Source: a virus
DNA length: 64,000 nucleotides
Strand: one strand, 5' to 3'
Virus record (IMG/VR): IMGVR_UViG_3300050501_000129
The stretch's first letter is position 1. The number at the start of each line of letters is the position of its first letter. Both the position numbers and the translations under genes were made by a program. Under the pieces are notes generated by a model. It saw only the letters and a program-made list of their open reading frames with translations, ran no database searches and was not told the DNA's origin. Shown here piece by piece: positions 1,876 through 64,000 of this stretch.

Positions 1876-2199
1876 GTGTGGATCCTAGACGTGCCCCACT
1901 GGATGCTACGGGGTCGCTGCCGCGGAGCCAACCCAGAGATCTTTGACGGTGATCCGCTCTATGAGGAGACCGCCAAGGGCTTCTGCGCCCGGTGCGTCGT
2001 ACGTACCGAGTGTCTGAATTACGCCCTCGAACACGGCAGCGCCGTCATCGGAGTCTGGGGCGGACTTAGTGAAGATGAACGCAACGCCCACCGGCGTGGC
2101 GGTCCGCGTCTCTCGTGTCCCGGTTGCCGCACGACGTTACACTTCAGCGACGGCCGAACCGAGATCTGTCTCAGCTGCGGACTGACGTGGAAGTCTTAA
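1876..2199 (+). CDS. WhiB-like (Wbl) Fe-S transcription factor with C-terminal CxxC..CxxC extension
   Basis: Cys pattern C-x21-C-x2-C-x5-C (RCRG...FCARCVVRTEC) followed by the GVWGG turn. Extra C-terminal CPGC...CLSC zinc-ribbon-like tail. GGGGAGG RBS precedes the GTG start. Confidence 0.85.
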   Translation: MWILDVPHWMLRGRCRGANPEIFDGDPLYEETAKGFCARCVVRTECLNYALEHGSAVIGVWGGLSEDERNAHRRGGPRLSCPGCRTTLHFSDGRTEICLSCGLTWKS

Positions 2200-2275: not shown

Positions 2276-3349
2276 CTACGTGCCGCTTGTTTCGCGTTCT
2301 AGCGTAACCGCGCGCGTCCACGCGTCCAGCCAGCGCCACGCGTTGCGCTCGATGGTCAGCTTGGCGGCGGCGTCTCGGCCGGCTAGCGCGCTCTCGGTGC
2401 GGCGGTCCGCGCTCTTAACCAAGCTATGAACGTACTTTCGCCACTCATGTGAATTTTTTGCGAGCAGACCGACGCCAAGACGCGCCAAGCGAGAGTACTC
2501 AGCGCGCGGTGACATGACGCACGGAACGCCGACCGCCGCGTACTCCAGCGGCTTAAGCCATGACTTAGCGGCGTTAAACTTAGAGTCCGCCAGCGGCGCG
2601 ACCCCGATACCGATCGTGTTAACCGCCAGGGGCCACGCGTTGATGTCCCTTATGACGTCCGTCGTGTCGATCGTGTAGCGCGTCGAGACGCCCAGCGCGG
2701 TATGAACGCCCGCCAGCGGGCCGGCGACACGGAACTGGCAGCCAAGCTGCAGCAGCTGCGCCATAGAGGGTCCCATAACCTGCAGGTCGGTCGGGTGTGA
2801 GTGCACCGAGCCAGCCCAACCGATGACGTTAGAGTCGGTATGTTCGATCTTCAGGTAGCGCTCGGGAACGCAGTTGCGCAGAATGTGTACCGGGGTCTTG
2901 GCGCCGTAGCGCGTCGCTAGCGCGTCGGTCGAGACCGTCACCAGTGACGCCGCGTCGCAGGCGAGCAGCGTGTTTTGCCACGAGTGTACCGCGTTGGGCC
3001 CGCTGGGATGCAGCGCGTGGAACGCTGGATTGGCCGGGTGGATGCACGTTAAGTCATCATCCATGTCGACGACGACGGCGGTACCCGCGTTGCGGATGAT
3101 CGGTATCGCCTGCACCAGGTACCGGTGCGTGACGCGTTGGAACACGATGACGTCCGCGTCCTGCGGAATCCGGACCTGGACAACGTGATCACCGTCGAGC
3201 TTGGCCTGCAGCATCTGGTCACGTTCCTGTGACGTGACGATCACGACGTCATGTCCCTGGCGCTGCAGCTCACGCGCTGGCCAGATCAGCCGGTAGTAGC
3301 CGCAGCCGGTGGTGTCGGCCGGAAAGATGTAGATCTTCACCGGATCCAC
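2276..3349 (-). CDS. glycosyltransferase (GT-B type, tentative)
   Basis: 357 aa. N-terminal IYIFPADTTGCGYY and C-terminal KSWLKPLEYAAVGVPCVMS resemble the GT1/GT4 nucleotide-sugar binding region. The start may instead be the GTG at 3340. Confidence 0.75.
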   Translation of the reverse strand: MDPVKIYIFPADTTGCGYYRLIWPARELQRQGHDVVIVTSQERDQMLQAKLDGDHVVQVRIPQDADVIVFQRVTHRYLVQAIPIIRNAGTAVVVDMDDDLTCIHPANPAFHALHPSGPNAVHSWQNTLLACDAASLVTVSTDALATRYGAKTPVHILRNCVPERYLKIEHTDSNVIGWAGSVHSHPTDLQVMGPSMAQLLQLGCQFRVAGPLAGVHTALGVSTRYTIDTTDVIRDINAWPLAVNTIGIGVAPLADSKFNAAKSWLKPLEYAAVGVPCVMSPRAEYSRLARLGVGLLAKNSHEWRKYVHSLVKSADRRTESALAGRDAAAKLTIERNAWRWLDAWTRAVTLERETSGT

Positions 3350-3438
3350 CGGACCTCATCATAGTCGACGTACCACATGCAGTAGCTGAGATAGAAGATC
3401 CATAAGCCAAGCAAGGCATCATACAGCAGTCTTACCAC
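3337..3438 (-). CDS. possible 33-aa hydrophobic micro-ORF between two glycosyltransferase genes
   Basis: The GTG overlaps the upstream TAA. The product is VVRLLYDALLGLWIFYLSYCMWYVDYDEVRWIR. Its TGA forms a GTGA overlap with an alternative GTG start of the downstream gene. It is short and unverified. Confidence 0.25.
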   Translation of the reverse strand: MVRLLYDALLGLWIFYLSYCMWYVDYDEVRWIR

Positions 3439-4034
3439 CGGTCCGGCCTTCCGCTCGTGTTGTTACCATGGTGGTGCCAGACCCAGGTCACCTCAGGAAC
3501 GTGCAGAAACGCCGCGCCAACCTCCAGCAGCCGCAGATAGAAGCCCCAGTCGTCATAGTCGCTGTCCGGTGACGTGGCCGGCGGACCGAACAGCGCCTGC
3601 TTGGCCAGGTTGGCGTACACGAGAGACGTCACCGGTATGTATGACTTCTGACGCAGCAGGTCAGCGTCGAACGGCTGACCGAAGCGTCCCCACTCCTCGC
3701 GCTGCGGAAGTATCTCGCCCCGCGCGTCGACCACGCGGCAGCCGGAATAGACCACAGTGGCACCGGACCGCAGCGCGTGATGCAGCAGGATCGTAAGGTG
3801 ATCCGGTAGAAGCTCATCATCGTCGTCGAGAAACGCGACCCACGTCGTTGATATGTGATACAGCGCCCGGTTGCGCGTCAGCGCCGAGCCGTCGTGTCGC
3901 TTGTCGAACGAGATGACGACGTTCTCCGGCTGGTGAGTCTGCGCCGCGACGCTCGTGACCGCGCGCGTCAGCTCGAAACGACGCGTCGGGATATGCGGTA
4001 TGATGACGGTTACCCTGTCCACAGCTGTCCCCAT
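3432..4034 (-). CDS. glycosyltransferase family 2 (GT-A)
   Basis: 200 aa. N-terminal VIIPHIPTR and DxD-type FLDDDDELLPDH are typical of GT2. Confidence 0.85.
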   Translation of the reverse strand: MGTAVDRVTVIIPHIPTRRFELTRAVTSVAAQTHQPENVVISFDKRHDGSALTRNRALYHISTTWVAFLDDDDELLPDHLTILLHHALRSGATVVYSGCRVVDARGEILPQREEWGRFGQPFDADLLRQKSYIPVTSLVYANLAKQALFGPPATSPDSDYDDWGFYLRLLEVGAAFLHVPEVTWVWHHHGNNTSGRPDRW

Positions 4035-4045
4035 TCAGTAACCCG

Positions 4046-4624
4046 TCACTGCCACCTGGTTGGCAGTCCGCTGGTGTGATGTCCGTGCAGCCGGTAGTGC
4101 CAGGTAATCTCACCGGTGCCGGCAAACTTCGCGCTGATGTTCATACACCGCAGGATGAACATCCAGTCCTCTCCCATCCAGTCTTGGTGAAGCGGACCAT
4201 CCGGCATGAGAAAACCGGCCTCCTTGGCGATTCGCGTTCGTACCATGACATTCATCGTCGTGTGATGTGGCTCAGTGGGATTGAACTGCCGGCCGCGATG
4301 CATCGGAAACGGGTTGTTGCCGTCGAACCACGAGTACAGGAAGTCGGCACCGGTATCATGTTGAAGGTTCAACAGCGTCTCAACGTGGTGCGGATACCAG
4401 AGGTCGTCGTCATCGAGAAAGGCAACCCACTCGGTCTGTACGGCGTCCAACGCCCGCTGACGGGTCCGCGCCGCACCCTCGTGATTACAGTCCAGCGCGA
4501 CGGAGATGCCACCGTGCAGCGTCACCGTCTGCGCCTGCACCGAGCTGACGGCCTCTGACAGGAGGTTGCCGACGCGCGGCGGAATGGCCGCGATCGCTGC
4601 CGTGACGTCTACCGTCTTCTTCAC
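4046..4624 (-). CDS. glycosyltransferase family 2 (GT-A)
   Basis: 192 aa, a paralogue-like copy of 3432..4034 (FLDDDDLWYPHH; similar C-terminal HHTSGLPTRW). Confidence 0.85.
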   Translation of the reverse strand: MKKTVDVTAAIAAIPPRVGNLLSEAVSSVQAQTVTLHGGISVALDCNHEGAARTRQRALDAVQTEWVAFLDDDDLWYPHHVETLLNLQHDTGADFLYSWFDGNNPFPMHRGRQFNPTEPHHTTMNVMVRTRIAKEAGFLMPDGPLHQDWMGEDWMFILRCMNISAKFAGTGEITWHYRLHGHHTSGLPTRWQ

Positions 4625-5139
4625 TTAGCCAGAGCTCCCACGGCACACTGCCACTTGGGGCGCGCGTCAGCGACCGGCCAAAGCAGCTTGACTTCATCCA
4701 TATTCATCGGCACGACGCTCGACCAGCCCGCGTCTTCCAGCAGCTCAACGAGTCGCGTCTCGGTACACTCCCACAGGTGAACGTCGCCAGCCCACCGGCC
4801 AGCGCCGAAGCGCAGCGAATCTAGCGTCGCGCCGTACTCGTCCGACCCGGTCTCACCGAGCAGCTCGCGGCCGCGGTCGACGTCCGGTCCAACGATCATG
4901 ATCGCGCCGTTAATGACCATACAGTCGCGCAGCCGTGACAGCAGCGTCCACGCGTCTGCACGCGTCAGGTGCTCTAGGACGTGTCCCGCGTAGACGCACT
5001 CGACGCTACCCGTCGGCCACGGCAGCTCACCGGTCAGGTCGACACGCTGGTCAGCGCGGTGCGGCATTTCAGGTAGGTCGACGTTGAGCCAGCCGTTTGC
5101 GTAGCGGTCGCCGCAGCCTAGGTTAAGTTGCACGCTCAT
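4621..5139 (-). CDS. class I SAM-dependent methyltransferase
   Basis: 172 aa. LNLGCGDRYANGWLNVD glycine-rich SAM motif plus VYAGHVLEHL. Forms a 4-nt overlap with the downstream gene. Confidence 0.8.
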   Translation of the reverse strand: MSVQLNLGCGDRYANGWLNVDLPEMPHRADQRVDLTGELPWPTGSVECVYAGHVLEHLTRADAWTLLSRLRDCMVINGAIMIVGPDVDRGRELLGETGSDEYGATLDSLRFGAGRWAGDVHLWECTETRLVELLEDAGWSSVVPMNMDEVKLLWPVADARPKWQCAVGALAK

Positions 5140-5144
5140 ACCTC

Positions 5145-6374
5145 CTACAGCAGGGTCGGCGCGGGAATCGGTAGGATCCAGTGGCCGCCGTCGATCGTGA
5201 ACTGCTGCTCATTACGCATGATTGAACCGGCGTAGTTCCACGCGAGTAGCAGGTAGGTGTCAGTAATCTCATGATCGACGACGGTCTGGTTGTAGATCTT
5301 TATTCCCGTTCCCGGAATGTAGCGCTCCTGCTTCGCTTCAGTCGTATCGGTGACGTAGCGTAGCAGCTCACCGTCGATGCCACAGAAGTTAAGCAGCGTC
5401 GTCGCCTTGGCCGGCGCGCCGTATCCAACAACTGCGTGACCGGCGTCACGTTCGTCAAGCAGCAGCTGCAGAAGCCGTTGTTTGAGCCGCTCAGCACGCC
5501 CCTGGAGCCCGAGGTAGACGTTCGTGTCCGTTAACCAGGCTTCAGAGCTGACGACGCTGGAGACTCGTCTAGAGACCTGACTCTGCCGGCGCAGCTTGAC
5601 ACGCAACGAGCCACCCTGTCGGTCAGTAAGCTGCGCGTCAACGACGTACAAGCCGTGGTTACGCGCCGCAGAGCGCAGACTGGTCAGCGAGAAGAAGTTG
5701 CGATGCTCGTGGTAGACCAGGTCGAACGCGTTATTGAGGATCAAGTCAGGTAGGTACTGCACCTCGACATACACGGTACCCTTGAACGCCAGCAACTCAT
5801 CGATACCGGCGAAGACGTCAGAGACGCTCTCGACGTGCGCCAAGACATGGTTCGCGATGATGACGTCTGCGGGCCCGTGCTGCGCGTGAATCTCGTGTGC
5901 CAGGTTGCGGCCGAATGGCTTGACGACCGTCTCGACGCCGCGCTGCGCGGCGACCTCAGCCGGTCCGTCAGCTGGATCAACTCCAATGACACGCCAGCCC
6001 GCGCGCAAGAGCAAGTGTGAGAAATCACCGTCGTTTGACCCGATCTCAACTACGAGCGGCTTGCGTGCCAGTCCGCTGTCGCTTAGATTCCACTCGTTAA
6101 GAACGTCGTTGGCGTAGCGCGCATGATAGAGCGACAGCGGCTTGGATGCACTTGAGTAGAACGAGTAGCCCGAGCCGAATAGGTCCGGCACCACCTCGAG
6201 CAGCTGAACCAGGTGGCAGCCGGCGCAGACCGCCAGCTGCAGCGGGTAGTGCGTCACCGTCTCGTTGTCCTTGGTGTAGTTGTCCGCGATCGGCGACAGT
6301 CCCAAGTCAAGAACCAGGCGCAAGTCGTCGTAGTTGCACGCGCTGCAGCGCGTCCTCTTCATCGTTGTCCCCAC
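5145..6374 (-). CDS. C-methyltransferase-family enzyme (NDP-hexose C-methyltransferase-like)
   Basis: 409 aa. N-terminal Zn-type CSAC...CAGCHLVQL, a central SAM domain (VVEIGSNDGDF), and the LVYHEHRNFFSLTSL motif typical of the TylCIII-like architecture. Confidence 0.75.
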   Translation of the reverse strand: MGTTMKRTRCSACNYDDLRLVLDLGLSPIADNYTKDNETVTHYPLQLAVCAGCHLVQLLEVVPDLFGSGYSFYSSASKPLSLYHARYANDVLNEWNLSDSGLARKPLVVEIGSNDGDFSHLLLRAGWRVIGVDPADGPAEVAAQRGVETVVKPFGRNLAHEIHAQHGPADVIIANHVLAHVESVSDVFAGIDELLAFKGTVYVEVQYLPDLILNNAFDLVYHEHRNFFSLTSLRSAARNHGLYVVDAQLTDRQGGSLRVKLRRQSQVSRRVSSVVSSEAWLTDTNVYLGLQGRAERLKQRLLQLLLDERDAGHAVVGYGAPAKATTLLNFCGIDGELLRYVTDTTEAKQERYIPGTGIKIYNQTVVDHEITDTYLLLAWNYAGSIMRNEQQFTIDGGHWILPIPAPTLL

Positions 6375-34681: not shown

Positions 34682-35095
34682 CTATGAGAATATCTTATCC
34701 AGGGCGTCGTTGACGGACTTGCGCAGCGTCTTCGGCGCGATCGCGTTGACGTCATCTAGGAAGCGCGCGACGTCCAGCGCGTTGCAGACCAGGTACGTGT
34801 GCTTCTCGCCCGTCGGTACGTGCGTAGCCAGCCGCAGCGACAGCAGCGTGGGATCGGACATACGCAGCTGCAGCGACGCGACACCGCTGGGCATCGGGAT
34901 ACCCGGAACGCAGCTCGCCAGCGCGTCCGAGAAGTGCTGGCGGTCAAGCTGCCAGAACTCGTCGGTGCCCTCCGCGTGCAGGGTCAGCGCGAACGGGTCG
35001 TCATCCTCGTAGGTCCACATCACCGATATGCCGCCATGATCATGCATCTTTCGGCAGCTGACGACGGTCAAGATCCGCATGTTCTTCGTAGTCAT
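34682..35095 (-). CDS. SsgA/SsgB-like sporulation-specific cell division protein (SALP)
   Basis: 137 aa from ATG 35095 (GAGGAGAG RBS). WTYEDDDPFALTLHAEGTDEFWQLDRQHFSDAL and PTLLSLRL..HVPTGEKHTYL..ALDVARFL follow the SsgA-like family pattern. The longer track ORF (to 35266) is an upstream shadow. Confidence 0.7.
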   Translation of the reverse strand: MTTKNMRILTVVSCRKMHDHGGISVMWTYEDDDPFALTLHAEGTDEFWQLDRQHFSDALASCVPGIPMPSGVASLQLRMSDPTLLSLRLATHVPTGEKHTYLVCNALDVARFLDDVNAIAPKTLRKSVNDALDKIFS

Positions 35096-35108
35096 CTCTC
35101 TTCTCTCC

Positions 35109-35258
35109 TCACCTGGCGGTTGCGGTGATTTCCGCGACGCAGTCCGGGCAGAGCAGCAGCTCGACGCCGTTGTCCGCGCGGACGGAGACCAGTTCGGTCT
35201 CTGGCACGATCTCACCCATCCGCTCGCAGCGGCCCAGGTGATCAGTGTACTCGTACAT
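35109..35258 (-). CDS. possible small Cys-containing protein (49 aa)
   Basis: GAGGAG RBS precedes the ATG at 35258. The product is MYEYTDHLGRCERMGEIVPETELVSVRADNGVELLLCPDCVAEITATAR. It is below the track cutoff. Confidence 0.45.
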   Translation of the reverse strand: MYEYTDHLGRCERMGEIVPETELVSVRADNGVELLLCPDCVAEITATAR

Positions 35259-35286
35259 CTTCTCACTCCTCACTTTAGCTTACGCG

Positions 35287-51844: not shown

Positions 51845-52425
51845 TTTTTGAAGAAACGCGTATGCTACAATAAAAATTATGGATTTACATGCGCAAGTAG
51901 ATGATCTTTTTCCAGGCGATAAGAGAACAATGATAAGAATTCTTGTCCACGCTCTTATCGATTTAGAACAAATTACATCACTGGACTGTATGTGGAGTTT
52001 GTGTGTACTTCCCGGTATACCTCTTTCTCCTGCAGGTACGCGTAAAGCATGTGCAACATTAGATCACATTCAAGCACGTACAAACGGTGGATCGGACCAC
52101 TGGCGCAACGTTCAACTACTTCATCATACATGTAACATGCGTAAAAGTCATGATTTCACTGAAGAACATAGACAAAAAATTAGTGATGCGGTGCGTAAAC
52201 GCTGGCAAGATCCTGAGTATCGAGCCACTGTTGCGCCTAAAGTTGCAGCAAAACTTCGTGACCCAGAAGTAAGAAAACGAAAAAGTGAAGCAATGAAACG
52301 CCACTGGGCTGATCCTGAACGTAAAGCACAGCACTCAGCTAAGCTTGCACGCGGTGAAGACTGGCGAAGGGCAAGAAGTTAACTATGTTAATAATATTGG
52401 AAGGTCCTGATGGTTCTGGCAAGTC
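51845..52425 (+). mobile_element. AT-rich island carrying a free-standing HNH homing endonuclease
   Basis: There is an abrupt drop in GC by eye from the stop at 51844 to about 52425. The island contains the HNH ORF and extends into the first ~13 codons of the next gene. Confidence 0.65.
51879..52382 (+). CDS. HNH homing endonuclease with NUMOD-like C-terminal repeats
   Basis: 167 aa. HNH core LDHIQARTNGGSDHWRNVQLLHHTCNMRK. Repeated basic helices (EEHRQKISDAVRKRWQDPEYR, RKRKSEAMKRHWADPERK). Confidence 0.85.
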   Translation: MDLHAQVDDLFPGDKRTMIRILVHALIDLEQITSLDCMWSLCVLPGIPLSPAGTRKACATLDHIQARTNGGSDHWRNVQLLHHTCNMRKSHDFTEEHRQKISDAVRKRWQDPEYRATVAPKVAAKLRDPEVRKRKSEAMKRHWADPERKAQHSAKLARGEDWRRARS

Positions 52426-53479
52426 GACGCTGGCGCAGGAGATCGCCGCCGAGCTGGGCCGGACGACCAGCGACAGGGTCGAGATCTGGCACCGCGGCCG
52501 GCCGACCGGTCACCCGCTAGACGAGTACCTGCGGCCGCTGTACGGCTACCGACCCGGCACCGGTTACCACCTGATCCTGGACCGCTGGCACTGGGGCGAG
52601 GTCGTCTATCCGAAGATTCTCAACCGGCCGACGAGCCAGAACAGCGCTGTCTTCTGGGCGATTGAGGCGTATCTGCTGCGACTCGGTGCGTTGGTCATTA
52701 ACTGTGACAATAACTTCACGTTCCAGTATCACAACATCTACCGTGAACGCGAGCTTGACGGTACTTCCGACGCCTGGCAGATCACTCACTTGAACCGGAT
52801 TCGTGACGAGTTTTCTCGTATGATCTATCGCTCGGCGCTACCGTCGTTGACGTATTCCTACGGCCACGACCCCCAACCCAATATCATCGACTTAGCGCGC
52901 CGCTACGAGACTCAGGCACGTGAGCTCAACGACTTCGTGACGTACTCTGGTCCGGTCAAACCTCACATGCTGCTGCTCGGTGACGTTCGCAACCTGCAGC
53001 CGATCGATCCACTGAACTCACCGGCATTCGTTCCCACCAAGCAGTCGTCCGGTCACTTCCTACTCAAGTCGTTGACGTCTCTAACGTCCCGCACATGGGT
53101 GCACGGCGTCGGACTGGCCAACGTCAACGACGTCGACAACGTGTATAAACTATGGCAGACTCTCGGGCAGCCGTCAGTCGTCGCGCTTGGTAGGAAAGCC
53201 CACGCCCGTACTCTCTACGTGCTAAACCAGGAATATGGTGTCGTTCCCCATCCCCAGTACGTCCGCCGGTTTCACCACGGTAAAAGTGAGCAGTACGGCT
53301 GGCTCATCTGTCAGGCCAGCCAGACGAGAGAGGACTACAGCAAGTGGCCACAGTCATCCACGCCCGTGACGGGCGAACCGCCTACGTCGATGTCATCACC
53401 AAGCTCCGGCTCTTTGGCGTCAGCCGACCCAGTCGCAACGGCCCGACCCGTGACCTCGGACACACCACTATCATCCTAG
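52385..53479 (+). CDS. thymidylate/dNMP kinase-like P-loop domain fused to a UDG-superfamily-like domain
   Basis: 364 aa. N-terminus has ILEGPDGSGKST and LDRWHWGEVVY (Tmk-like P-loop and DR motif). The C-terminal ~170 aa have the UDG family-4-like layout (LLLGDVRN...PAFVP..SSGHFLL; VGLANVN; VPHPQYVRR) with altered catalytic residues. Confidence 0.7.
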   Translation: MLIILEGPDGSGKSTLAQEIAAELGRTTSDRVEIWHRGRPTGHPLDEYLRPLYGYRPGTGYHLILDRWHWGEVVYPKILNRPTSQNSAVFWAIEAYLLRLGALVINCDNNFTFQYHNIYRERELDGTSDAWQITHLNRIRDEFSRMIYRSALPSLTYSYGHDPQPNIIDLARRYETQARELNDFVTYSGPVKPHMLLLGDVRNLQPIDPLNSPAFVPTKQSSGHFLLKSLTSLTSRTWVHGVGLANVNDVDNVYKLWQTLGQPSVVALGRKAHARTLYVLNQEYGVVPHPQYVRRFHHGKSEQYGWLICQASQTREDYSKWPQSSTPVTGEPPTSMSSPSSGSLASADPVATARPVTSDTPLSS

Positions 53480-54204
53480 ACGAGCCGTGCGACGCGCTAC
53501 CTATCGACGTCGGTCGCGGGCTCAGCGAGCGGATCGCCGCGCTAGAGGCGATCCAGCTAGTTGGCGCCTTCTCTGACCCCGACTGGCTCGTCGAGAGGGC
53601 TCCCCAGCTGTCTCCCTACAGGGAGCCGTCCGGTGCGTTCTGGGGCGCGTACGGACGCCGGATCGGCTGGCAGATCCGCGACGCCGTCGCCAAGCTGCGT
53701 GCCGACCCGTGGACGCGCCAGGCCGTCGCCACTCTCTGGGATCCCATGTACGACAACTACCCGGAGAAGCGTGACTACCCGTGCACCGTCGCGCTTGGTT
53801 TCACCCAGCAGCCGACGTTTACCAGTGACCAGCTCAACATGCACGTCACGATGCGCTCAAACGACGCGTGGCTTGGACTACCGTATGACATGTTTCAGTT
53901 CACCCAGCTCTTCCAGACCGTCTGCCGCTGCCTGGACGTCCGACCCGGCACGTACACTCACACCGCGTGGTCGCTGCACCTGTATGACCGAGACGTCGAC
54001 CGCACGCACGACGTCGCGCTGGCCGGCGACACCGGCTACCGGTTTGACCCGACCGGTTTCGGTGAACCGAACATGTCGTTCACTGACGTCAGCCAGCGAG
54101 CGCACGTGATCGCGCTGACCCCGGACAAGATCGACTGGGAGCTTACTCCGAGTGAGAGGTGGTACCGTGACGCTATCCATGGCGATCCGACCAAGTTGGC
54201 ATGA
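53344..54204 (+). CDS. thymidylate synthase (ThyA)-family pyrimidine C5 (hydroxy)methylase, Asp at the specificity position
   Basis: 286 aa. RQAVATLWDP, YPC (catalytic Cys), MRSNDAWLGLPYDMFQF and HLY align to ThyA RRIIVSAWNV, APCH, QRSCDVFLGLPFNIASY and THLY. The gene overlaps the upstream gene by 136 nt. Confidence 0.85.
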   Translation: MATVIHARDGRTAYVDVITKLRLFGVSRPSRNGPTRDLGHTTIILDEPCDALPIDVGRGLSERIAALEAIQLVGAFSDPDWLVERAPQLSPYREPSGAFWGAYGRRIGWQIRDAVAKLRADPWTRQAVATLWDPMYDNYPEKRDYPCTVALGFTQQPTFTSDQLNMHVTMRSNDAWLGLPYDMFQFTQLFQTVCRCLDVRPGTYTHTAWSLHLYDRDVDRTHDVALAGDTGYRFDPTGFGEPNMSFTDVSQRAHVIALTPDKIDWELTPSERWYRDAIHGDPTKLA

Positions 54205-54664
54205 CGTGCGACTCGCGATGGCCACCGAGCTGGCCAAGCGCAGCCTGTGCAGCCGTGACCAGGTCGGCGCGGTGGTTGTCGACAAGTACAACAAGATCAT
54301 CGGTGAGGGCTACAACGGCCCGCCGCGTGGCTTCTGGCACGGTGGAGAGCCGTGCACCAAGTGGTGCCAGCGTACGATGAACTTTAAGCTCGCGGGTGAC
54401 GATGGACTTCATACAACATATGATGACTGTCCGTCACTGCACGCCGAAGCCAACGCCCTGCTGCAGGCCGACCGCTCGTTCTGCCTCGGCGGTACCATCT
54501 TCGTGACGAGCCACGTCTGCATGGGTTGTGCCAAGCTCATCGCCAACTCCGGCCTGGGAATGCTAGTCGTCCGATCCGTCGTCAAGGATCACCGACGCTC
54601 GGAAGAGGTCTACAACTTCCTGCGCGACTGCAAGATCGAGCTGGGTATCTGGGAGGACAGGTGA
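54167..54664 (+). CDS. dCMP deaminase
   Basis: Zinc motifs CPSLHAEANAL and HVCMGCAKLI (the HAE...PCxxC class). The start is ambiguous (GTG 54152, GTG 54167 or ATG 54179). Confidence 0.85.
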   Translation: MTLSMAIRPSWHDVRLAMATELAKRSLCSRDQVGAVVVDKYNKIIGEGYNGPPRGFWHGGEPCTKWCQRTMNFKLAGDDGLHTTYDDCPSLHAEANALLQADRSFCLGGTIFVTSHVCMGCAKLIANSGLGMLVVRSVVKDHRRSEEVYNFLRDCKIELGIWEDR

Positions 54665-56466
54665 CCGGTACCGGGGTACTTGACCGCGTCAAGCTGCACT
54701 ACATCGAGTCGTTCGACGACGTTCAGGCGTACATCGACTGGTTCTCCAACAAGGCTTATGATGACCCGATCGCCGTCGACACCGAGTCGACCGGCTTCTA
54801 CTGGCACCGTGATGACTACGTCCGGATGGTCCAGGTCGGTGACGAAGTCGACGGCTGGGCAATGCGCTGGGACCGATTCTCGGGCCTGTTCGAGGCGACC
54901 GTCGCGGTGCACGAGGGTCCGATCGACCTGATGAACGCCAAGTTCGACTACGCGTTCCTGCGCAAGGCCGGCGTCAAGCTTAGGCAGCCGCTGATCCGCG
55001 ACGTCGGTGTCATGTCGTACGTTCTCGAGCCGCACATGTCACGCGCGCTCAAGAACCAGGCCAAGCGGCACGTCGACCCGCGCGCCGGCACGCTCCAGTG
55101 GCAGCTCGACGAGGCGATCGGTGGTCGCAGCGAGTGGACGTGGGCGACGATCCCGCACGACTTTCCGCTGTACTGGCAGTACGCCGCGATGGACCCGGTG
55201 CTGACCGCTCTGATCCGTGAGCACCACTGGCCGCTCGTTCAGGAGCGCGCGCCGCGCGCCTATGAGATCGAGAACGAGTTCCAGTGGGTCGCGCTTAAGG
55301 CCGAGACGTACGGCGTCTGCATCGACGTCGACTACGCGGATCGGCACTACTCCAAGTTCACCGCGTACTGCGAGGACGTCGAGCGATGGTGTGAGAGTGA
55401 GTACGGCGTCAAGCCGGGCAGCAACCAGGCCATCGTGCGCAAGCTGGTCGAGCTTGGTTTCAGTGAAGATCACTACTTCTCTAAGTCAACCGCCAAGGGC
55501 GCGGTCGCGCTCGACTCTAGCGTCCTAGAAGTCATCGATCACCCGCTCGCGCAGGCGGTTCTCCAGCGGCGGCAGCTGCAGAAGATCGCATCAACGTACC
55601 TGCGGTTCTACGTCGGTCACGTCGACTCGAACTCGCTGATTCACCCGTCGATCAACACCGTCGGCGCGCTGACCGGCCGGATGACCGTCTCGGAGCCCAA
55701 CCTGCAGAACCTGCCGGTCCGCGGCACCAACCCAGCGCACAGGGTCGTCCGCAACTGCGTCGTCGCGCGGCCCGGTCACACGCTTATCATGGTCGACTTC
55801 GACCAGGTCGAGATGCGCGGACTGGCGATCGACTCCGGTGACGCCGGCTTGATCGCGGCGTTTCAGGCCGACGAGGACTTCTTCGTCTCGATCGCGCGCC
55901 AGGTCTACGACGACCCGACGCTGGTCAAGGCGGACCCGCGCCGGCAGCCGGTTAAGAACGGCATGTACGCCCGGATCTACGGCGCCGGGCTGGTCAAACA
56001 GGCCGCCACGGCCGGCGTGTCCGTCGAGCAGATGCGCTATGTCAACACGTCGCTGAACCTCAAGTTCCCGGGCATCGAGTCGTACGCGCGCGGCATCATC
56101 GACCAGGCGATCCGCGACGGTCGCAACGAGGGCGGACTGGCGTTCACGACCTGCTCGCTGACCGGCCAGCGTCACTACGCCGAGCGCGGCAAGGAGTACG
56201 CGCTGGTCAACTACAAGATCCAGGGATGGGCCGCCAAGCTGTTGAAGCTCAAGGCGCTCGAGTTAGACGCGGCCGGTCTCGGTGACTACATCATCGCGTT
56301 CATCCATGACGAAATCATCTTTGACATGCCGAATGACCTGGTCCGTGACGCGGTGCACACCATTCAAAAGATCATGAACGACACGACGATGTTCCCCGTC
56401 GCGATCACGGCCAGCGTCTCGACGGGGCAGCGGTGGGGAGAGAAGAAAGAGTGGAGTGAAGATTAA
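54661..56466 (+). CDS. polA: DNA polymerase I (family A) with 3'-5' exonuclease domain
   Basis: The GTG at 54661 makes a GTGA overlap with the deaminase stop. Exo I IAVDTESTGF; motif A MVDFDQVEMRGLA; motif B RRQPVKNGMYARIYG; motif C FIHDEIIFD. Confidence 0.9.
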   Translation: MTGTGVLDRVKLHYIESFDDVQAYIDWFSNKAYDDPIAVDTESTGFYWHRDDYVRMVQVGDEVDGWAMRWDRFSGLFEATVAVHEGPIDLMNAKFDYAFLRKAGVKLRQPLIRDVGVMSYVLEPHMSRALKNQAKRHVDPRAGTLQWQLDEAIGGRSEWTWATIPHDFPLYWQYAAMDPVLTALIREHHWPLVQERAPRAYEIENEFQWVALKAETYGVCIDVDYADRHYSKFTAYCEDVERWCESEYGVKPGSNQAIVRKLVELGFSEDHYFSKSTAKGAVALDSSVLEVIDHPLAQAVLQRRQLQKIASTYLRFYVGHVDSNSLIHPSINTVGALTGRMTVSEPNLQNLPVRGTNPAHRVVRNCVVARPGHTLIMVDFDQVEMRGLAIDSGDAGLIAAFQADEDFFVSIARQVYDDPTLVKADPRRQPVKNGMYARIYGAGLVKQAATAGVSVEQMRYVNTSLNLKFPGIESYARGIIDQAIRDGRNEGGLAFTTCSLTGQRHYAERGKEYALVNYKIQGWAAKLLKLKALELDAAGLGDYIIAFIHDEIIFDMPNDLVRDAVHTIQKIMNDTTMFPVAITASVSTGQRWGEKKEWSED

Positions 56467-56726
56467 TGCAGTACTGGTCTTGGATTCTAGCCACGATCGG
56501 AATCACCGCAATGTGGCTTGCCGGTCGACATAACAAGCTCGGTTGGCTGATCGGTGTCGCTGCACAGATCATTTGGTTTGTTTACGCGATCGTCACTCGA
56601 CAGTGGGGTTTCATCGCCACAGCGATCGCTTACAGCTTCGTCTACGCCCGTAACTGGTACCGCTGGCGTCAGCTTGAACATGCTGTAACCAGTCCGGTAA
56701 GAGAGTCAGAGAGTGTGAGTATATGA
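56466..56726 (+). CDS. three-TM membrane protein, PnuC-like (tentative)
   Basis: 86 aa. MWLAGRHNKLGWLIGVAAQIIWFVYAI...YARNWYRW resembles one repeat unit of nicotinamide riboside transporter PnuC. Confidence 0.5.
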   Translation: MQYWSWILATIGITAMWLAGRHNKLGWLIGVAAQIIWFVYAIVTRQWGFIATAIAYSFVYARNWYRWRQLEHAVTSPVRESESVSI

Positions 56727-61907: not shown

Positions 61908-63173
61908 GTGAAGAGACGAATCGGCTACGCCAAGCTCGGCCGCTCGATGCCGCTGCAGCTCGGTGACTGTGGCTCTAACGGCGGTGACGTTGAGATGATT
62001 CCGACGCTCCAGCTGCTCGCCGAGCGTCACCCAGACGTCGAGTTCGTTATCATCGGTCGCAACTCCGGTGAGGAGCCGGCGCGCGTCGGCCTACCTGCCA
62101 ACATCACCAATCCGTGGACCGGTTGGTGGCCCAAGATCCGCGCTGAGATGAACGCAGCGAAGCTGAATCATCCGGCTCTAAGCGTCGACGAGCACCTACG
62201 ACTTGCCGAGATCTTTGACCGGTACACACGCGACGCCTTTGTGCTGCTTGACGGCGTTGTTATGTGGCTTGGCCAGCACGGCACAACACACACTCCGCTG
62301 CCGTCAATTAAAGATCGCAGCGTCTTGACCAAACCATATGACTCATTGTCACTCTACGGCGGCTACCTGCTACGTGGCGTCAACGCGTGGCGCGACGTCG
62401 ATCCGCATAATCGTGAGGAGGTGCTGCTCAACCCAGACCCGCGCAACGTGCCAAAGTACCGGGACGGCCGGTATCCGTGGCGGCACGCCGTCTTGAGCCA
62501 GCACGACCAGGTAAACGCGATTAAGCACGAGGAGGGTGACCGGGTCGTTTCGTCGACGGTTCTCAGCGTCTACTCGCGCCTGGAGATCTCGGGTCTGCTC
62601 CCTAGTACGCCGTTCACCAACCTCATTAAGTTCAATGACGACCACAACCGACCGCACGACTTCGGCATCGTGTTCAATGAGACACGGCGTGACGTCGCGC
62701 TCGAGAAGTCACGACGTTACATCCTAGAGAAGTGGGTGTTCCCGCTGTCTCCCGGCTTTATCTACGGACAATGGAGCGACGCAACTCGGCGGCAGCTCGG
62801 CATCCGGATTGAACCGATCGACGTGCTGAACTACTTCAGTACGATCCAGACCACGCGCTGCACGTTGACGACCCCGTCATCTGGCTCCGGCTGGGCGACT
62901 GCCAAACCGTGGGAGTGCTTCGCCGCCGGCGTGGTCTGCTTCTTTCACCCAGCGTACGACGACCAGAACCACATACTCAACGACGCACCCTACGCGCTTG
63001 CGTCGTGGCTGCGCGTCCGTCACCCGATTGACCTACGTGACCGGATCCGCTACATGCGAGACAACCCAGAGTATTGGCAGGAAATCGTTCGGCTTCAACG
63101 CAATCACTACCTAAAAGCTATCGACGAGCTCAGCTACATAACAAAGATCGAACAGAGACTGGGACTGGACTAA
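61908..63173 (+). CDS. GT-B-like glycosyltransferase (tentative)
   Basis: 421 aa. The C-terminal TTPSSGSGWATAKPWECFAAGVVCFFHP resembles the GT4 PSxxEgfG..lEAmAxGxPV region. Confidence 0.55.
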   Translation: MKRRIGYAKLGRSMPLQLGDCGSNGGDVEMIPTLQLLAERHPDVEFVIIGRNSGEEPARVGLPANITNPWTGWWPKIRAEMNAAKLNHPALSVDEHLRLAEIFDRYTRDAFVLLDGVVMWLGQHGTTHTPLPSIKDRSVLTKPYDSLSLYGGYLLRGVNAWRDVDPHNREEVLLNPDPRNVPKYRDGRYPWRHAVLSQHDQVNAIKHEEGDRVVSSTVLSVYSRLEISGLLPSTPFTNLIKFNDDHNRPHDFGIVFNETRRDVALEKSRRYILEKWVFPLSPGFIYGQWSDATRRQLGIRIEPIDVLNYFSTIQTTRCTLTTPSSGSGWATAKPWECFAAGVVCFFHPAYDDQNHILNDAPYALASWLRVRHPIDLRDRIRYMRDNPEYWQEIVRLQRNHYLKAIDELSYITKIEQRLGLD

Positions 63174-63859
63174 TGGACGCGATAATCCTCGCCGGCGGGC
63201 GCGGCACCCGCGTCATGGAGCTGGCTCCCGAGTTCCACAAGCCGCTGCTGCCAGTCAACGGCGTCCCGATGGTGACGCTGGCCGTCGACCTGGCGCTGCG
63301 CGCCGGCGTCACGTGTCCCGTCGTCGTGGCCGCGCCCGCCAACACCGAGGCGATCTGCGGCGCACTGGACGGCCGACCCGCGTTCGTCGTCATCCAGCGC
63401 CAGCCGCTCGGCGCCGGCCACGCGCTGCTGCTCGGGCTGCAGGCCAGTCCGCGCCCGCTCGTCGATTGCGATCGGGTGCTCGTGCTACTCAGTGACAACG
63501 TCTCGACGGACACCGACGTCACCGCGGTGATGCAACACCCAACCGCGATCGGGATCCAGTACATCGAGCGGGTCAACGCGTTTCGCTTCGCGCGGCTGAA
63601 CGACGACGGCCGCTGGTGCGAAAAGGAACGCCTCAAGCTTGACGGTCCGCCCGTAGCGTGTTGGGTTGGACCGTTCATCGGCTGGCGCAACCGAATGGTG
63701 CGGGTGCTTGCCGAGGCGGTCGCCGCGCGCAAGCCGAATGAAGAGGTTTACATCGGACCCCACCTCGGTAACTTCATGTACAGCGAGACGAAGTGTCCCC
63801 TCGTGCCGGTCGACTCGCTCGACCTGGGCGTGACGGACGAGTACCGGAGGTTAACATGA
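63173..63859 (+). CDS. sugar-phosphate nucleotidyltransferase
   Basis: 228 aa from ATG 63173 (TAATG overlap with the upstream stop). AIILAGGRGTRV...KPLLPV is the GxGTR(x)n K signature of NDP-sugar pyrophosphorylases. Confidence 0.8.
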   Translation: MDAIILAGGRGTRVMELAPEFHKPLLPVNGVPMVTLAVDLALRAGVTCPVVVAAPANTEAICGALDGRPAFVVIQRQPLGAGHALLLGLQASPRPLVDCDRVLVLLSDNVSTDTDVTAVMQHPTAIGIQYIERVNAFRFARLNDDGRWCEKERLKLDGPPVACWVGPFIGWRNRMVRVLAEAVAARKPNEEVYIGPHLGNFMYSETKCPLVPVDSLDLGVTDEYRRLT

Positions 63860-63999
63860 ATGAAAACGAGACTGAAGAGATGAACGACGGTAAAATGAAC
63901 TGGCCGGCCGCGGTCGTCAACGTCGTACTTATCCTGGCCGTCGTCGCGATCGTATTCATTATCTGCGGCAACGACATCTTGAAGGGCTGGCTGACGTGA
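63856..63999 (+). CDS. small single-TM protein (47 aa)
   Basis: ATGA overlap with the upstream stop. The product begins MNENETEEMNDGKMNWPAAVVNVVLILAVVAIVFIICG. Confidence 0.45.
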   Translation: MNENETEEMNDGKMNWPAAVVNVVLILAVVAIVFIICGNDILKGWLT

Positions 64000-64000
64000 C

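Follow-up and report, generated by a model that had tools for sequence, protein, structure and literature searches.

Thymidylate synthase homologue of an actinophage lineage as a predicted dCMP 5-hydroxymethylase

Does a viral gene, whose relatives are named thymidylate synthase (TS) in the records examined, in fact serve to modify cytosine? The question is raised by an open reading frame (ORF) at 53344-54204 (+) in the IMG/VR virus record IMGVR_UViG_3300050501_000129, of which a stretch of 64,000 nucleotides (nt), here called the window, was analysed. Several metagenomes yielded the 68,421-bp contig to which the window belongs, each time with the same length, and the gene order of this contig wraps around. 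A first-pass annotation, made from the sequence of the window, had described the product as a ThyA homologue in which Asp replaces the Asn that selects uracil, and had predicted a cytosine C5 (hydroxy)methylase. The ORF lies exactly where that annotation placed it, begins with a GTG codon with GAGGA about 9 nt upstream, and encodes 286 amino acids (aa). Its residues and their conservation, its fold and its gene context together make it fairly probable that the protein is a folate-dependent deoxycytidine monophosphate (dCMP) 5-hydroxymethylase, or 5-hydroxymethyl-dCMP (5hm-dCMP) synthase, the product of which would be routed into the phage DNA.

Specificity residues of the TS-fold protein

The protein matches the Pfam family Thymidylat_synt (PF00303, E=8e-17, above the gathering score) and four PHROG families called thymidylate synthase. 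The motifs quoted for it in the first-pass annotation (TRQAVATLWDP, DYPCTV, MRSNDAWLGLPYDMFQF and SLHLYD) are all present, and those quoted for E. coli ThyA are correct. The alignment to canonical TS had also been described as free of gaps, which is true of the motif blocks, but an indel of four residues lies between the Cys block and the RS(N/C)D block. HMMER aligns Asp182, from the PYD motif, with the Asn of PFN in a canonical TS (3kgb), and pairs the same residue with the Asp of VSD in MilA, the cytidine monophosphate (CMP) 5-hydroxymethylase of Streptomyces rimofaciens (PDB 5b6d/5jnh). By MAFFT, Asp182 shares one column with Asp179 of gp42, the dCMP hydroxymethylase of phage T4 (EC 2.1.2.8), with the Asp of the dCMP methyltransferase of Xanthomonas phage Xp12, and with Asn177 of E. 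coli ThyA, as had been proposed. The reference proteins were taken from annotated records for T4 gp42, E. coli ThyA, Xp12, Morttis, Cba120, PSA20 and CP-51.

Asp occupies this position in all 115 database homologues that are 230 aa or longer and in all 81 related viral loci from IMG/VR, which range down to 35% identity. Therefore, the substitution did not arise by chance. A signature of catalytic and specificity positions (E58/Y94/R126/L143D/C146/H147T/R166/S167/D169/N177D/H207/Y209, in E. coli numbering) is unchanged across the 81 loci and agrees with T4 gp42 at all 12 positions, for the same predicted reaction. In the protein, these positions are Glu68, Tyr103, Arg125, Asp144, Cys147 (the nucleophile), Thr148, Arg171, Ser172, Asp174, Asp182 (the predicted cytosine selector), His212 and Tyr214. 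No variation is seen across the family in Cys147, Arg171, Tyr103 or Glu68, the equivalents of catalytic Cys146, Arg166, Tyr94 and Glu58 of TS, nor in Asp144 (at L143) and Asp174 (at D169), nor in Ser172 and Arg125, the equivalents of Ser167 and Arg126 that go with a deoxy sugar.

E. coli ThyA, in contrast, has L143, H147 and N177 where the phage protein has Asp144, Thr148 and Asp182. There is an alignment gap at Trp80, and Tyr takes the place of W83, as in MilA. In ThyA, Leu143, His147 and Trp80/Trp83 screen the reaction intermediate and keep the folate in place for hydride transfer. Altogether, five ThyA-diagnostic positions deviate together, and do so invariantly across the family. N177D has been found to select dCMP (PMC8670742, PMC13326640), an acidic residue in place of L143 accompanies a hydroxymethyl instead of a methyl product (PMC13326640), and Ser167 with Arg126 confers specificity for deoxyribose, whereas Ala176 and Lys133 of MilA favour ribose (PMC5175136). 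In metagenomes, position 147 ranks second among the positions associated with modification (PMC8670742), and D169N is the mark of flavin-dependent 5-hydroxy-dCMP synthases (PMC13326640). The substrate is very likely to be a cytosine deoxynucleotide.

An ordinary TS that tolerates the Asp would be in keeping with the PF00303 score, with the annotation in GenBank and IMG, where DSL-LC01, GodonK, Forza and GMA2 are among the phages whose gene goes by the name thymidylate synthase, and with the neighbouring dCMP deaminase, which would supply dUMP. But the five diagnostic positions are off together and invariantly so, every curated ThyA equivalog model of NCBIfam fails by more than 100 bits (the best scores being 58.6 against a cutoff of 174.6 bits and 53.6 against 327), and MilA comes ahead of every TS by sequence as well as by fold, with Trp80 absent. 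An enzyme that makes dTMP is hard to credit. The proposal of a cytosine C5 one-carbon transferase in place of a dTMP synthase is instead supported by the residue alignment, by invariance across the family, by MilA as the best match, by the failure of the ThyA equivalog models, and by the pathway context.

Relatives of the enzyme and the predicted product

A profile of the family matches MilA with E=2e-29, whereas true TSs and ThyAs are matched at about 1e-17 to 1e-21. The AlphaFold2 model of the 286-aa protein has a pLDDT of 92.6, and its top seven matches in a Foldseek search of the PDB are chains of MilA, with query-normalised TM scores of 0.70-0.80 over about 300 columns. These are followed by a phage dCMP hydroxylase (9iqu/9iqc) and then by TSs. 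MilA has Asp at positions 177 and 143, Thr at 147 and Tyr at W83, and also lacks Trp80. There are only two signature differences, in that MilA carries Lys133 and Ala176, which go with ribo-CMP, where the phage protein has Arg125 and Ser172. When this Arg and Ser pair is introduced into MilA, the enzyme switches to dCMP (PMC5175136). The settings are also unlike, given that MilA acts in antibiotic biosynthesis and the phage gene sits in a replication operon.

T4 gp42 is a protein of 246 aa, whereas the 286-aa phage protein has a MilA-like helical C-terminal extension. In a neighbour-joining tree, the family groups with MilA and with the enzymes of 5-hydroxymethyluracil (5hmU) phages, apart from the pair formed by gp42 and the Morttis enzyme. 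Scores against the hidden Markov model (HMM) of the family are 133 bits for CP-51, 111 for PSA20, 100 for Cba120, and 102 for a partial MilA sequence. The 5hmU-lineage enzymes (CP-51 gp100, Cba120 orf073 and that of PSA20) are thus the closest phage clade by HMM score, and they share the YxxDG...GxYG region and Asp at 143 with the phage protein. Unlike it, they have the uracil-specific Asn at 177 as well as at 147, with an insertion of one residue before the Asn, and by analogy with the lineage of their phages they presumably make 5hm-dUMP. Judged by sequence, the 286-aa protein is a MilA-like enzyme of the pyrimidine hydroxymethylase clade with cytosine- and deoxy-specific residues, and not a member of the gp42 clade.

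The same residues bear on what is left at C5. In an enzyme of the Xp12 type, the methylene intermediate would be reduced to give 5-methyl-dCMP, and 5-methylcytosine (5mC) would replace cytosine in the DNA. Asp182 fits such a dCMP methyltransferase equally well, the LGLPYD(M/V) stretch is nearly identical to VGLPYDV of Xp12 in its GLPYD motif, and in Xp12 a dCMP deaminase gene also lies directly downstream of the TS homologue. In addition, the N229D mutant of TS is reported to turn into a dCMP methylase (Liu and Santi 1992, as cited in PMC13326640). The Xp12 enzyme, however, has Asn143 and Pro147 where the phage protein has Asp and Thr, like T4 gp42 and MilA, and both the fold and the extended C-terminus match MilA best. 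Xp12 also has an adjacent gene for dihydrofolate reductase (DHFR), which is needed because methyl transfer oxidises the folate, and none was found by sequence comparison in this genome: tblastn of two DHFR queries, an E. coli FolA sequence and the Xp12 DHFR from its record, gave no hit at E<0.4 in the genome of about 68.4 kb. Methylation of dCMP is considered unlikely.

A different group at C5 of dCMP is another alternative, either a hydroxyl, as made by RB69 gp48, DLP3 gp80 and AfhB of HY126, or some other substituent. Flavin-dependent dCMP 5-hydroxylases were recently recognised as members of the TS superfamily (PMC13326640), and it is a phage dCMP hydroxylase that follows MilA in the search of the PDB. 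The three 5-hydroxy-dCMP synthases have the TS fold, Asp177 and an acidic residue at 143, and their genes adjoin that of a Tmk-like kinase, with sugar-activating and glycosyltransferase (GT) genes nearby (PMC13326640). They differ in D169N and in the use of flavin and O2. D169N is present in all tested 5-hydroxy-dCMP synthases, and the DLP3-like synthase of phage Morttis also has N at 169, whereas the phage family keeps Asp174 invariantly; a hydroxylase is accordingly a very slight prospect. The earlier term (hydroxy)methylase can be narrowed to hydroxymethylase, in that Asp144 and Thr148 stand at the L143 and H147 positions, Asp174 is kept at D169, Trp80 is absent, and the two DHFR queries detected no DHFR.

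Replication operon and downstream block

The TS homologue is the second gene of an operon in the order kinase fusion, TS homologue, dCMP deaminase and family A DNA polymerase (PolA), with overlaps of 136, 38 and 4 nt. The first gene, at 52385-53479 (+), encodes a two-domain protein recognised by domain match, fold and motifs as a Tmk/YorR-like P-loop kinase with a second domain. The deaminase, called at 54167-54664 (+) within an ORF that opens at 54152, has the HAE and CxxC zinc motifs, and PolA, at 54661-56466 (+), is the predicted incorporating polymerase. All four genes are kept in about 78-80 of the 81 loci and occur in cultured Gordonia phages as well. PolA is followed by genes for a 150-aa protein, which is RuvC-like by position according to the annotation of DSL-LC01, an SNF2 helicase, a PD-(D/E)XK exonuclease, an AAA_24 recombinase and a 190-aa protein. 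The operon and these five genes are conserved in about 70-80 of the 81 loci, in DSL-LC01, and in the Gordonia phages GodonK, Forza and GMA2, the enzymes of which have the same 12-position signature. Between PolA and the 150-aa gene, an 86-aa hydrophobic protein with a weak match to the Pfam family NMN_transporter (PnuC-like) is encoded at 56466-56726 (+).

A nucleotide kinase fusion and a dCMP deaminase had been said to flank the gene by analogy with T4 gp1 and cd. Both are present, but the partner kinase of T4 is gp1-like and the kinase here is Tmk/YorR-like in its fold (residues 1 to about 180), which makes it a functional analogue and not a homologue of gp1. YorR is also the top structural match for the kinases that adjoin the TS homologues of DLP3 and RB69 (PMC13326640). 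The domain is predicted to be a 5hm-dCMP kinase. Residues from about 185 to 322 form a conserved alpha/beta domain with the motif order GDVRN...PAFVP...SGHFLL...LANVND...VVALG...VPHPQYVRRF, which hints at a resemblance to family 4 uracil-DNA glycosylase (UDG). The Pfam UDG model matches 4 of 17 members of this domain, at best with E=2e-4; neither a profile search of the PDB nor PHROGs gave a match, and a profile search of large databases returned unannotated relatives only, some of them stand-alone proteins. Foldseek results for the whole model are dominated by the kinase domain. The kinases of the Gordonia phages do not have the UDG-like domain.

The tail of the kinase protein (residues 325-364) is rich in Pro, Ser and Thr and is predicted to be disordered (pLDDT<50), and its codons overlap the start of the TS homologue at 53344-53479. 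Over this overlap of 136 nt, the TS homologue has a conserved, structured N-terminus, and both reading frames appear to be in use. Directly 5' of the kinase, in a locally AT-rich stretch, lies an HNH endonuclease gene at 51879-52382 (+) that is probably a homing endonuclease insertion; the spurious ORFs that overlap it have atypical codon-position GC. An HNH gene likewise lies just upstream of the kinase in GMA2. The public gene calls for the contig omit both the HNH gene and the kinase gene.

Further downstream, a block of four genes begins with GT421, a GT-like gene of the replication module at 61908-63173 (+) that has a weak match to Glyco_trans_1_2 and, by sequence, no match in the PDB. 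It is followed at 63173-63859 (+) by a sugar-1-phosphate nucleotidyltransferase (PF00483/PF12804), a candidate supplier of nucleoside diphosphate (NDP) sugar. The first 5 nt of the third gene are in the window (63996-64000 (+); L013:10824-11498), and it encodes a 224-aa protein of the PF08761 dimeric d(C/U)TPase family with a local match to the dCTPase gp56 of T4 (E=8e-9). At its C-terminus, the PF08761 protein continues for about 100 aa more, with many Cys pairs (CAGC and CSHC among them); this extension is not seen in T4 gp56 or in the C. jejuni dUTPase and suggests zinc binding. The fourth gene lies beyond the window (L013:11535-13025) and encodes a 496-aa homologue of PF00145 C5-DNA-methyltransferases (C5-MTases) with intact motifs I, IV and VI, namely FAGG, the catalytic Cys in PPCSGFS, and ESV.

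The C5-MTase homologue was considered as a stray accessory gene, given that it was seen in 1 of the 81 loci, a count limited by the length of the flanks. This was rejected after the comparison was re-centred on 67 viral loci with relatives of GT421: where there is enough downstream sequence, the PF08761 gene is present in 43 of 45 loci and the C5-MTase homologue in 44 of 45, and where there is enough upstream sequence, the TS homologue with Asp is present in 35 of 40. In its predicted logic, the pathway resembles that of T4, as the genome encodes a kinase, a dCMP deaminase, a member of the d(C/U)TPase family and a GT candidate, while the host phylum, Actinomycetota, and the accompanying C5-MTase homologue are unlike T4.

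In the GenBank phage collection, GT421 has a single homologue, found in the marine Pseudoalteromonas phage vB_Psh_XG4. The unannotated record holds a cluster (L136:1-6600) of a gp42-like gene, a HAD phosphatase, a fusion of nucleotidyltransferase and sugar kinase (APH-like), the GT421 homologue, a second GT, and a PF00145 homologue (L136:5363-6580). The gp42-like gene is 50% identical to T4 gp42, has the same 5hm-type signature, and lies 2.2 kb from the GT421 homologue. The cluster is similar to the sugar-activation clusters of RB69 and DLP3, but with a 5hm-type (Asp169) enzyme, and XG4 is likely to be a phage with glycosylated 5-hydroxymethylcytosine (5hmC). XG4 and the actinophage lineage are unrelated and their TS homologues belong to different clades, yet they share a hydroxymethylase, a nucleotidyltransferase, GT421 and a C5-MTase homologue. 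This shared set supports GT421, by association, as a candidate DNA 5hmC glycosyltransferase, and lends indirect support to 5hmC in the actinophage DNA. The pairing of the MTase with GT421 beside a gp42-like gene suggests a functional link and not coincidence, and since the MTase homologue recurs in the clusters of both lineages, it is taken as part of the system and not as an accessory.

These genes also bear on the alternatives. Glycosylation needs a hydroxyl acceptor, so that a GT421 homologue beside a T4-like hydroxymethylase in XG4 argues further against an Xp12-type methyltransferase, and DNA in which every cytosine is 5mC would make the conserved C5-MTase redundant. A more favoured alternative, though still an improbable one, is that 5hm-dCMP is made but cytosine is not replaced wholesale. 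The deaminase could convert the product to 5hm-dUMP and so lead to DNA of the 5hmU type, or replacement could be partial, with the C5-MTase covering leftover cytosines at specific motifs. The start of the deaminase gene overlaps the end of the TS homologue by 38 nt, a tight pairing kept in 79 of 81 loci that suggests translational coupling and speaks for this alternative. Partial replacement is made more plausible by the C5-MTase homologue, with its intact motifs and its recurrence in XG4, and the dCTPase activity of the PF08761 protein is a prediction. Pathways of 5hmU hypermodification, however, include a 5-HMU DNA kinase and aGPT-Pplase, neither of which was among the domains found in the Pfam scans that were made. 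A deaminase is also adjacent to the TS homologue in Xp12, the cytosines of which are fully replaced. In addition, co-occurrence of TS and deaminase is typical of contigs with modified cytosine (PMC8670742).

A post-replicative route to 5hmC, in which a MTase, a TET/5mYOX oxidase and a GT act in turn (bioRxiv 10.1101/2023.12.21.572611), was considered and rejected, as the oxidase was not found: there is no TET or JBP domain among the Pfam matches for the non-structural half of the genome, and the 190-aa protein before GT421 has no Pfam match and is not TET-like. A more speculative extension of the preferred hydroxymethylase pathway is that GT421, the d(C/U)TPase-family protein, the C5-MTase-fold protein and the kinase-UDG-like fusion form a variant cytosine hypermodification system, in which the MTase-fold protein acts on or alongside DNA with 5hmC made before replication. 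The MTase-fold protein might protect residual cytosines or serve as a base-flipping or modifying partner, and the UDG-like domain might bind or police pyrimidines. This extension has a low probability.

Proposed pathway and its meaning for the lineage

The fold, the residue identities, their conservation, the synteny and the co-occurrence of genes are observed, whereas the substrate, the product, its incorporation into DNA and its glycosylation are inferred. In the proposed hydroxymethylase pathway, the PF08761 protein would hydrolyse dCTP, dCDP and/or dUTP, as T4 gp56 does, and so feed dCMP and deplete dCTP. Cys147 would attack C6 of dCMP, and Asp182 would hydrogen-bond N3 and the 4-amino group and thereby select cytosine. 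The methylene of 5,10-methylenetetrahydrofolate would be transferred to C5, to give 5hm-dCMP and tetrahydrofolate. Asp144 at the L143 position and the absence of Trp80 would together let water in, so that the exocyclic methylene would be hydrated instead of reduced. The fused Tmk-like kinase domain would convert 5hm-dCMP to 5hm-dCDP, a host NDP kinase would produce 5hm-dCTP, and the phage PolA would place it into DNA. Some dCMP would be turned into dUMP by the dCMP deaminase and so serve dTMP synthesis by the host. No second TS-fold gene was found by tblastn with E. coli ThyA in the genome of about 68.4 kb, and no ThyX domain is present in the precomputed Pfam lists that cover its non-structural half. 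After replication, in this sub-lineage, GT421 would probably glycosylate 5hmC with the NDP-sugar from the adjacent nucleotidyltransferase.

Several observations weigh against this pathway. Against the family HMM, T4 gp42 reaches just 34.8 bits, less than any other reference, and the family lies outside the gp42 clade. The characterised enzymes that come closest to it on HMM score are those of 5hmU-lineage phages, so that the assignment of cytosine specificity depends on a small number of residues. The rule that L143 decides between hydroxymethyl and methyl is said to be one that "appears to correlate" (PMC13326640), and is thus correlative and not a proven determinant. GT421 matches glycosyltransferase models weakly, with E about 4e-4, and the PF08761 protein is indistinguishable from an ordinary dUTPase on sequence grounds. 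The C5-MTase homologue would have no substrate if every cytosine were 5hmC. With regard to the modified cytosine that had been predicted for the genome, a conserved and apparently intact C5-MTase homologue tells against substitution at C5 of every cytosine. GC-rich palindromes are not depleted in the genome, which is weakly consistent with 5hmC.

The window also has a second sugar cluster, at 2276-6374 (-), at the end of the tail-gene operon. It holds a GT-B-like GT (2276-3349 (-)), two GT2 enzymes (3432-4034 and 4046-4624 (-)), a small methyltransferase (4621-5139 (-)) and an NDP-hexose C-methyltransferase (5145-6374 (-); PF08421/PF08484, E=3e-42). Homologues of GT357 and GT200 co-occur in many related loci. 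This cluster could contribute to glycans on the DNA. Some mycobacteriophages glycosylate virion proteins, however, and the three GTs at 2276-4624 may act on virion proteins and not on DNA, a further point against the glycosylated form of the pathway.

The first-pass call of an actinophage agrees with the other genes of the window and with the nearest cultured relatives, which infect Gordonia. A WhiB-like regulator is a clear match at 1876-2199 (+), and an SsgA-like gene is a weak one (E=1e-3) at 34682-35266 (-); to judge from these two genes, the host would be actinobacterial and possibly sporulating. No near-identical DNA is present in the GenBank phage collection, and comparison with bacterial genomes returned only contigs of metagenome-assembled genomes and distant homologues from Micromonosporaceae or proteobacteria.

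Large metagenome surveys (PMC8670742, PMC13326640, bioRxiv 10.1101/2023.12.21.572611) have already applied the Asn-to-Asp rule, which is well established for TS homologues of phages, and neither the rule nor the mining of viromes for TS homologues with GTs is new. New elements are the host phylum, how large the lineage is, and a mis-annotation that runs uniformly through the records examined. About 490 homologous proteins, 488 IMG/VR contigs and cultured phages of Gordonia, among them GodonK, Forza and GMA2, belong to the lineage, and the annotation is thymidylate synthase in every record examined and in every source name of a homologue. The predicted MilA-like scaffold with deoxy-specific residues is likewise new, as are the kinase fused to a domain that is tentatively UDG-like and the conserved, as yet unexplained C5-MTase homologue. 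No report of 5hmC in actinophages was found in the searchable literature, which also gave nothing on DNA modification or restriction resistance of GMA2 or GodonK DNA. Cultured relatives are available, which makes a direct test of the prediction possible.

Should the prediction hold, 5hmC stands in for cytosine, or adds to it, in the DNA of a large lineage of Actinomycetota phages, some of which would probably also glycosylate it, and the group-wide annotation as thymidylate synthase would be corrected. The MilA-like deoxy-specific hydroxymethylase and a new glycosyltransferase family would be added to the enzymes of 5hmC chemistry. The finding would also bear on artefacts in the sequencing and cloning of these phages, and on phage-based tools for Gordonia and related genera. 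In short, 5hmC is a known kind of anti-restriction chemistry, the actinobacterial phages are a host group for which it has had no report, and its presence would bear on how such phages evade restriction and CRISPR in their hosts.

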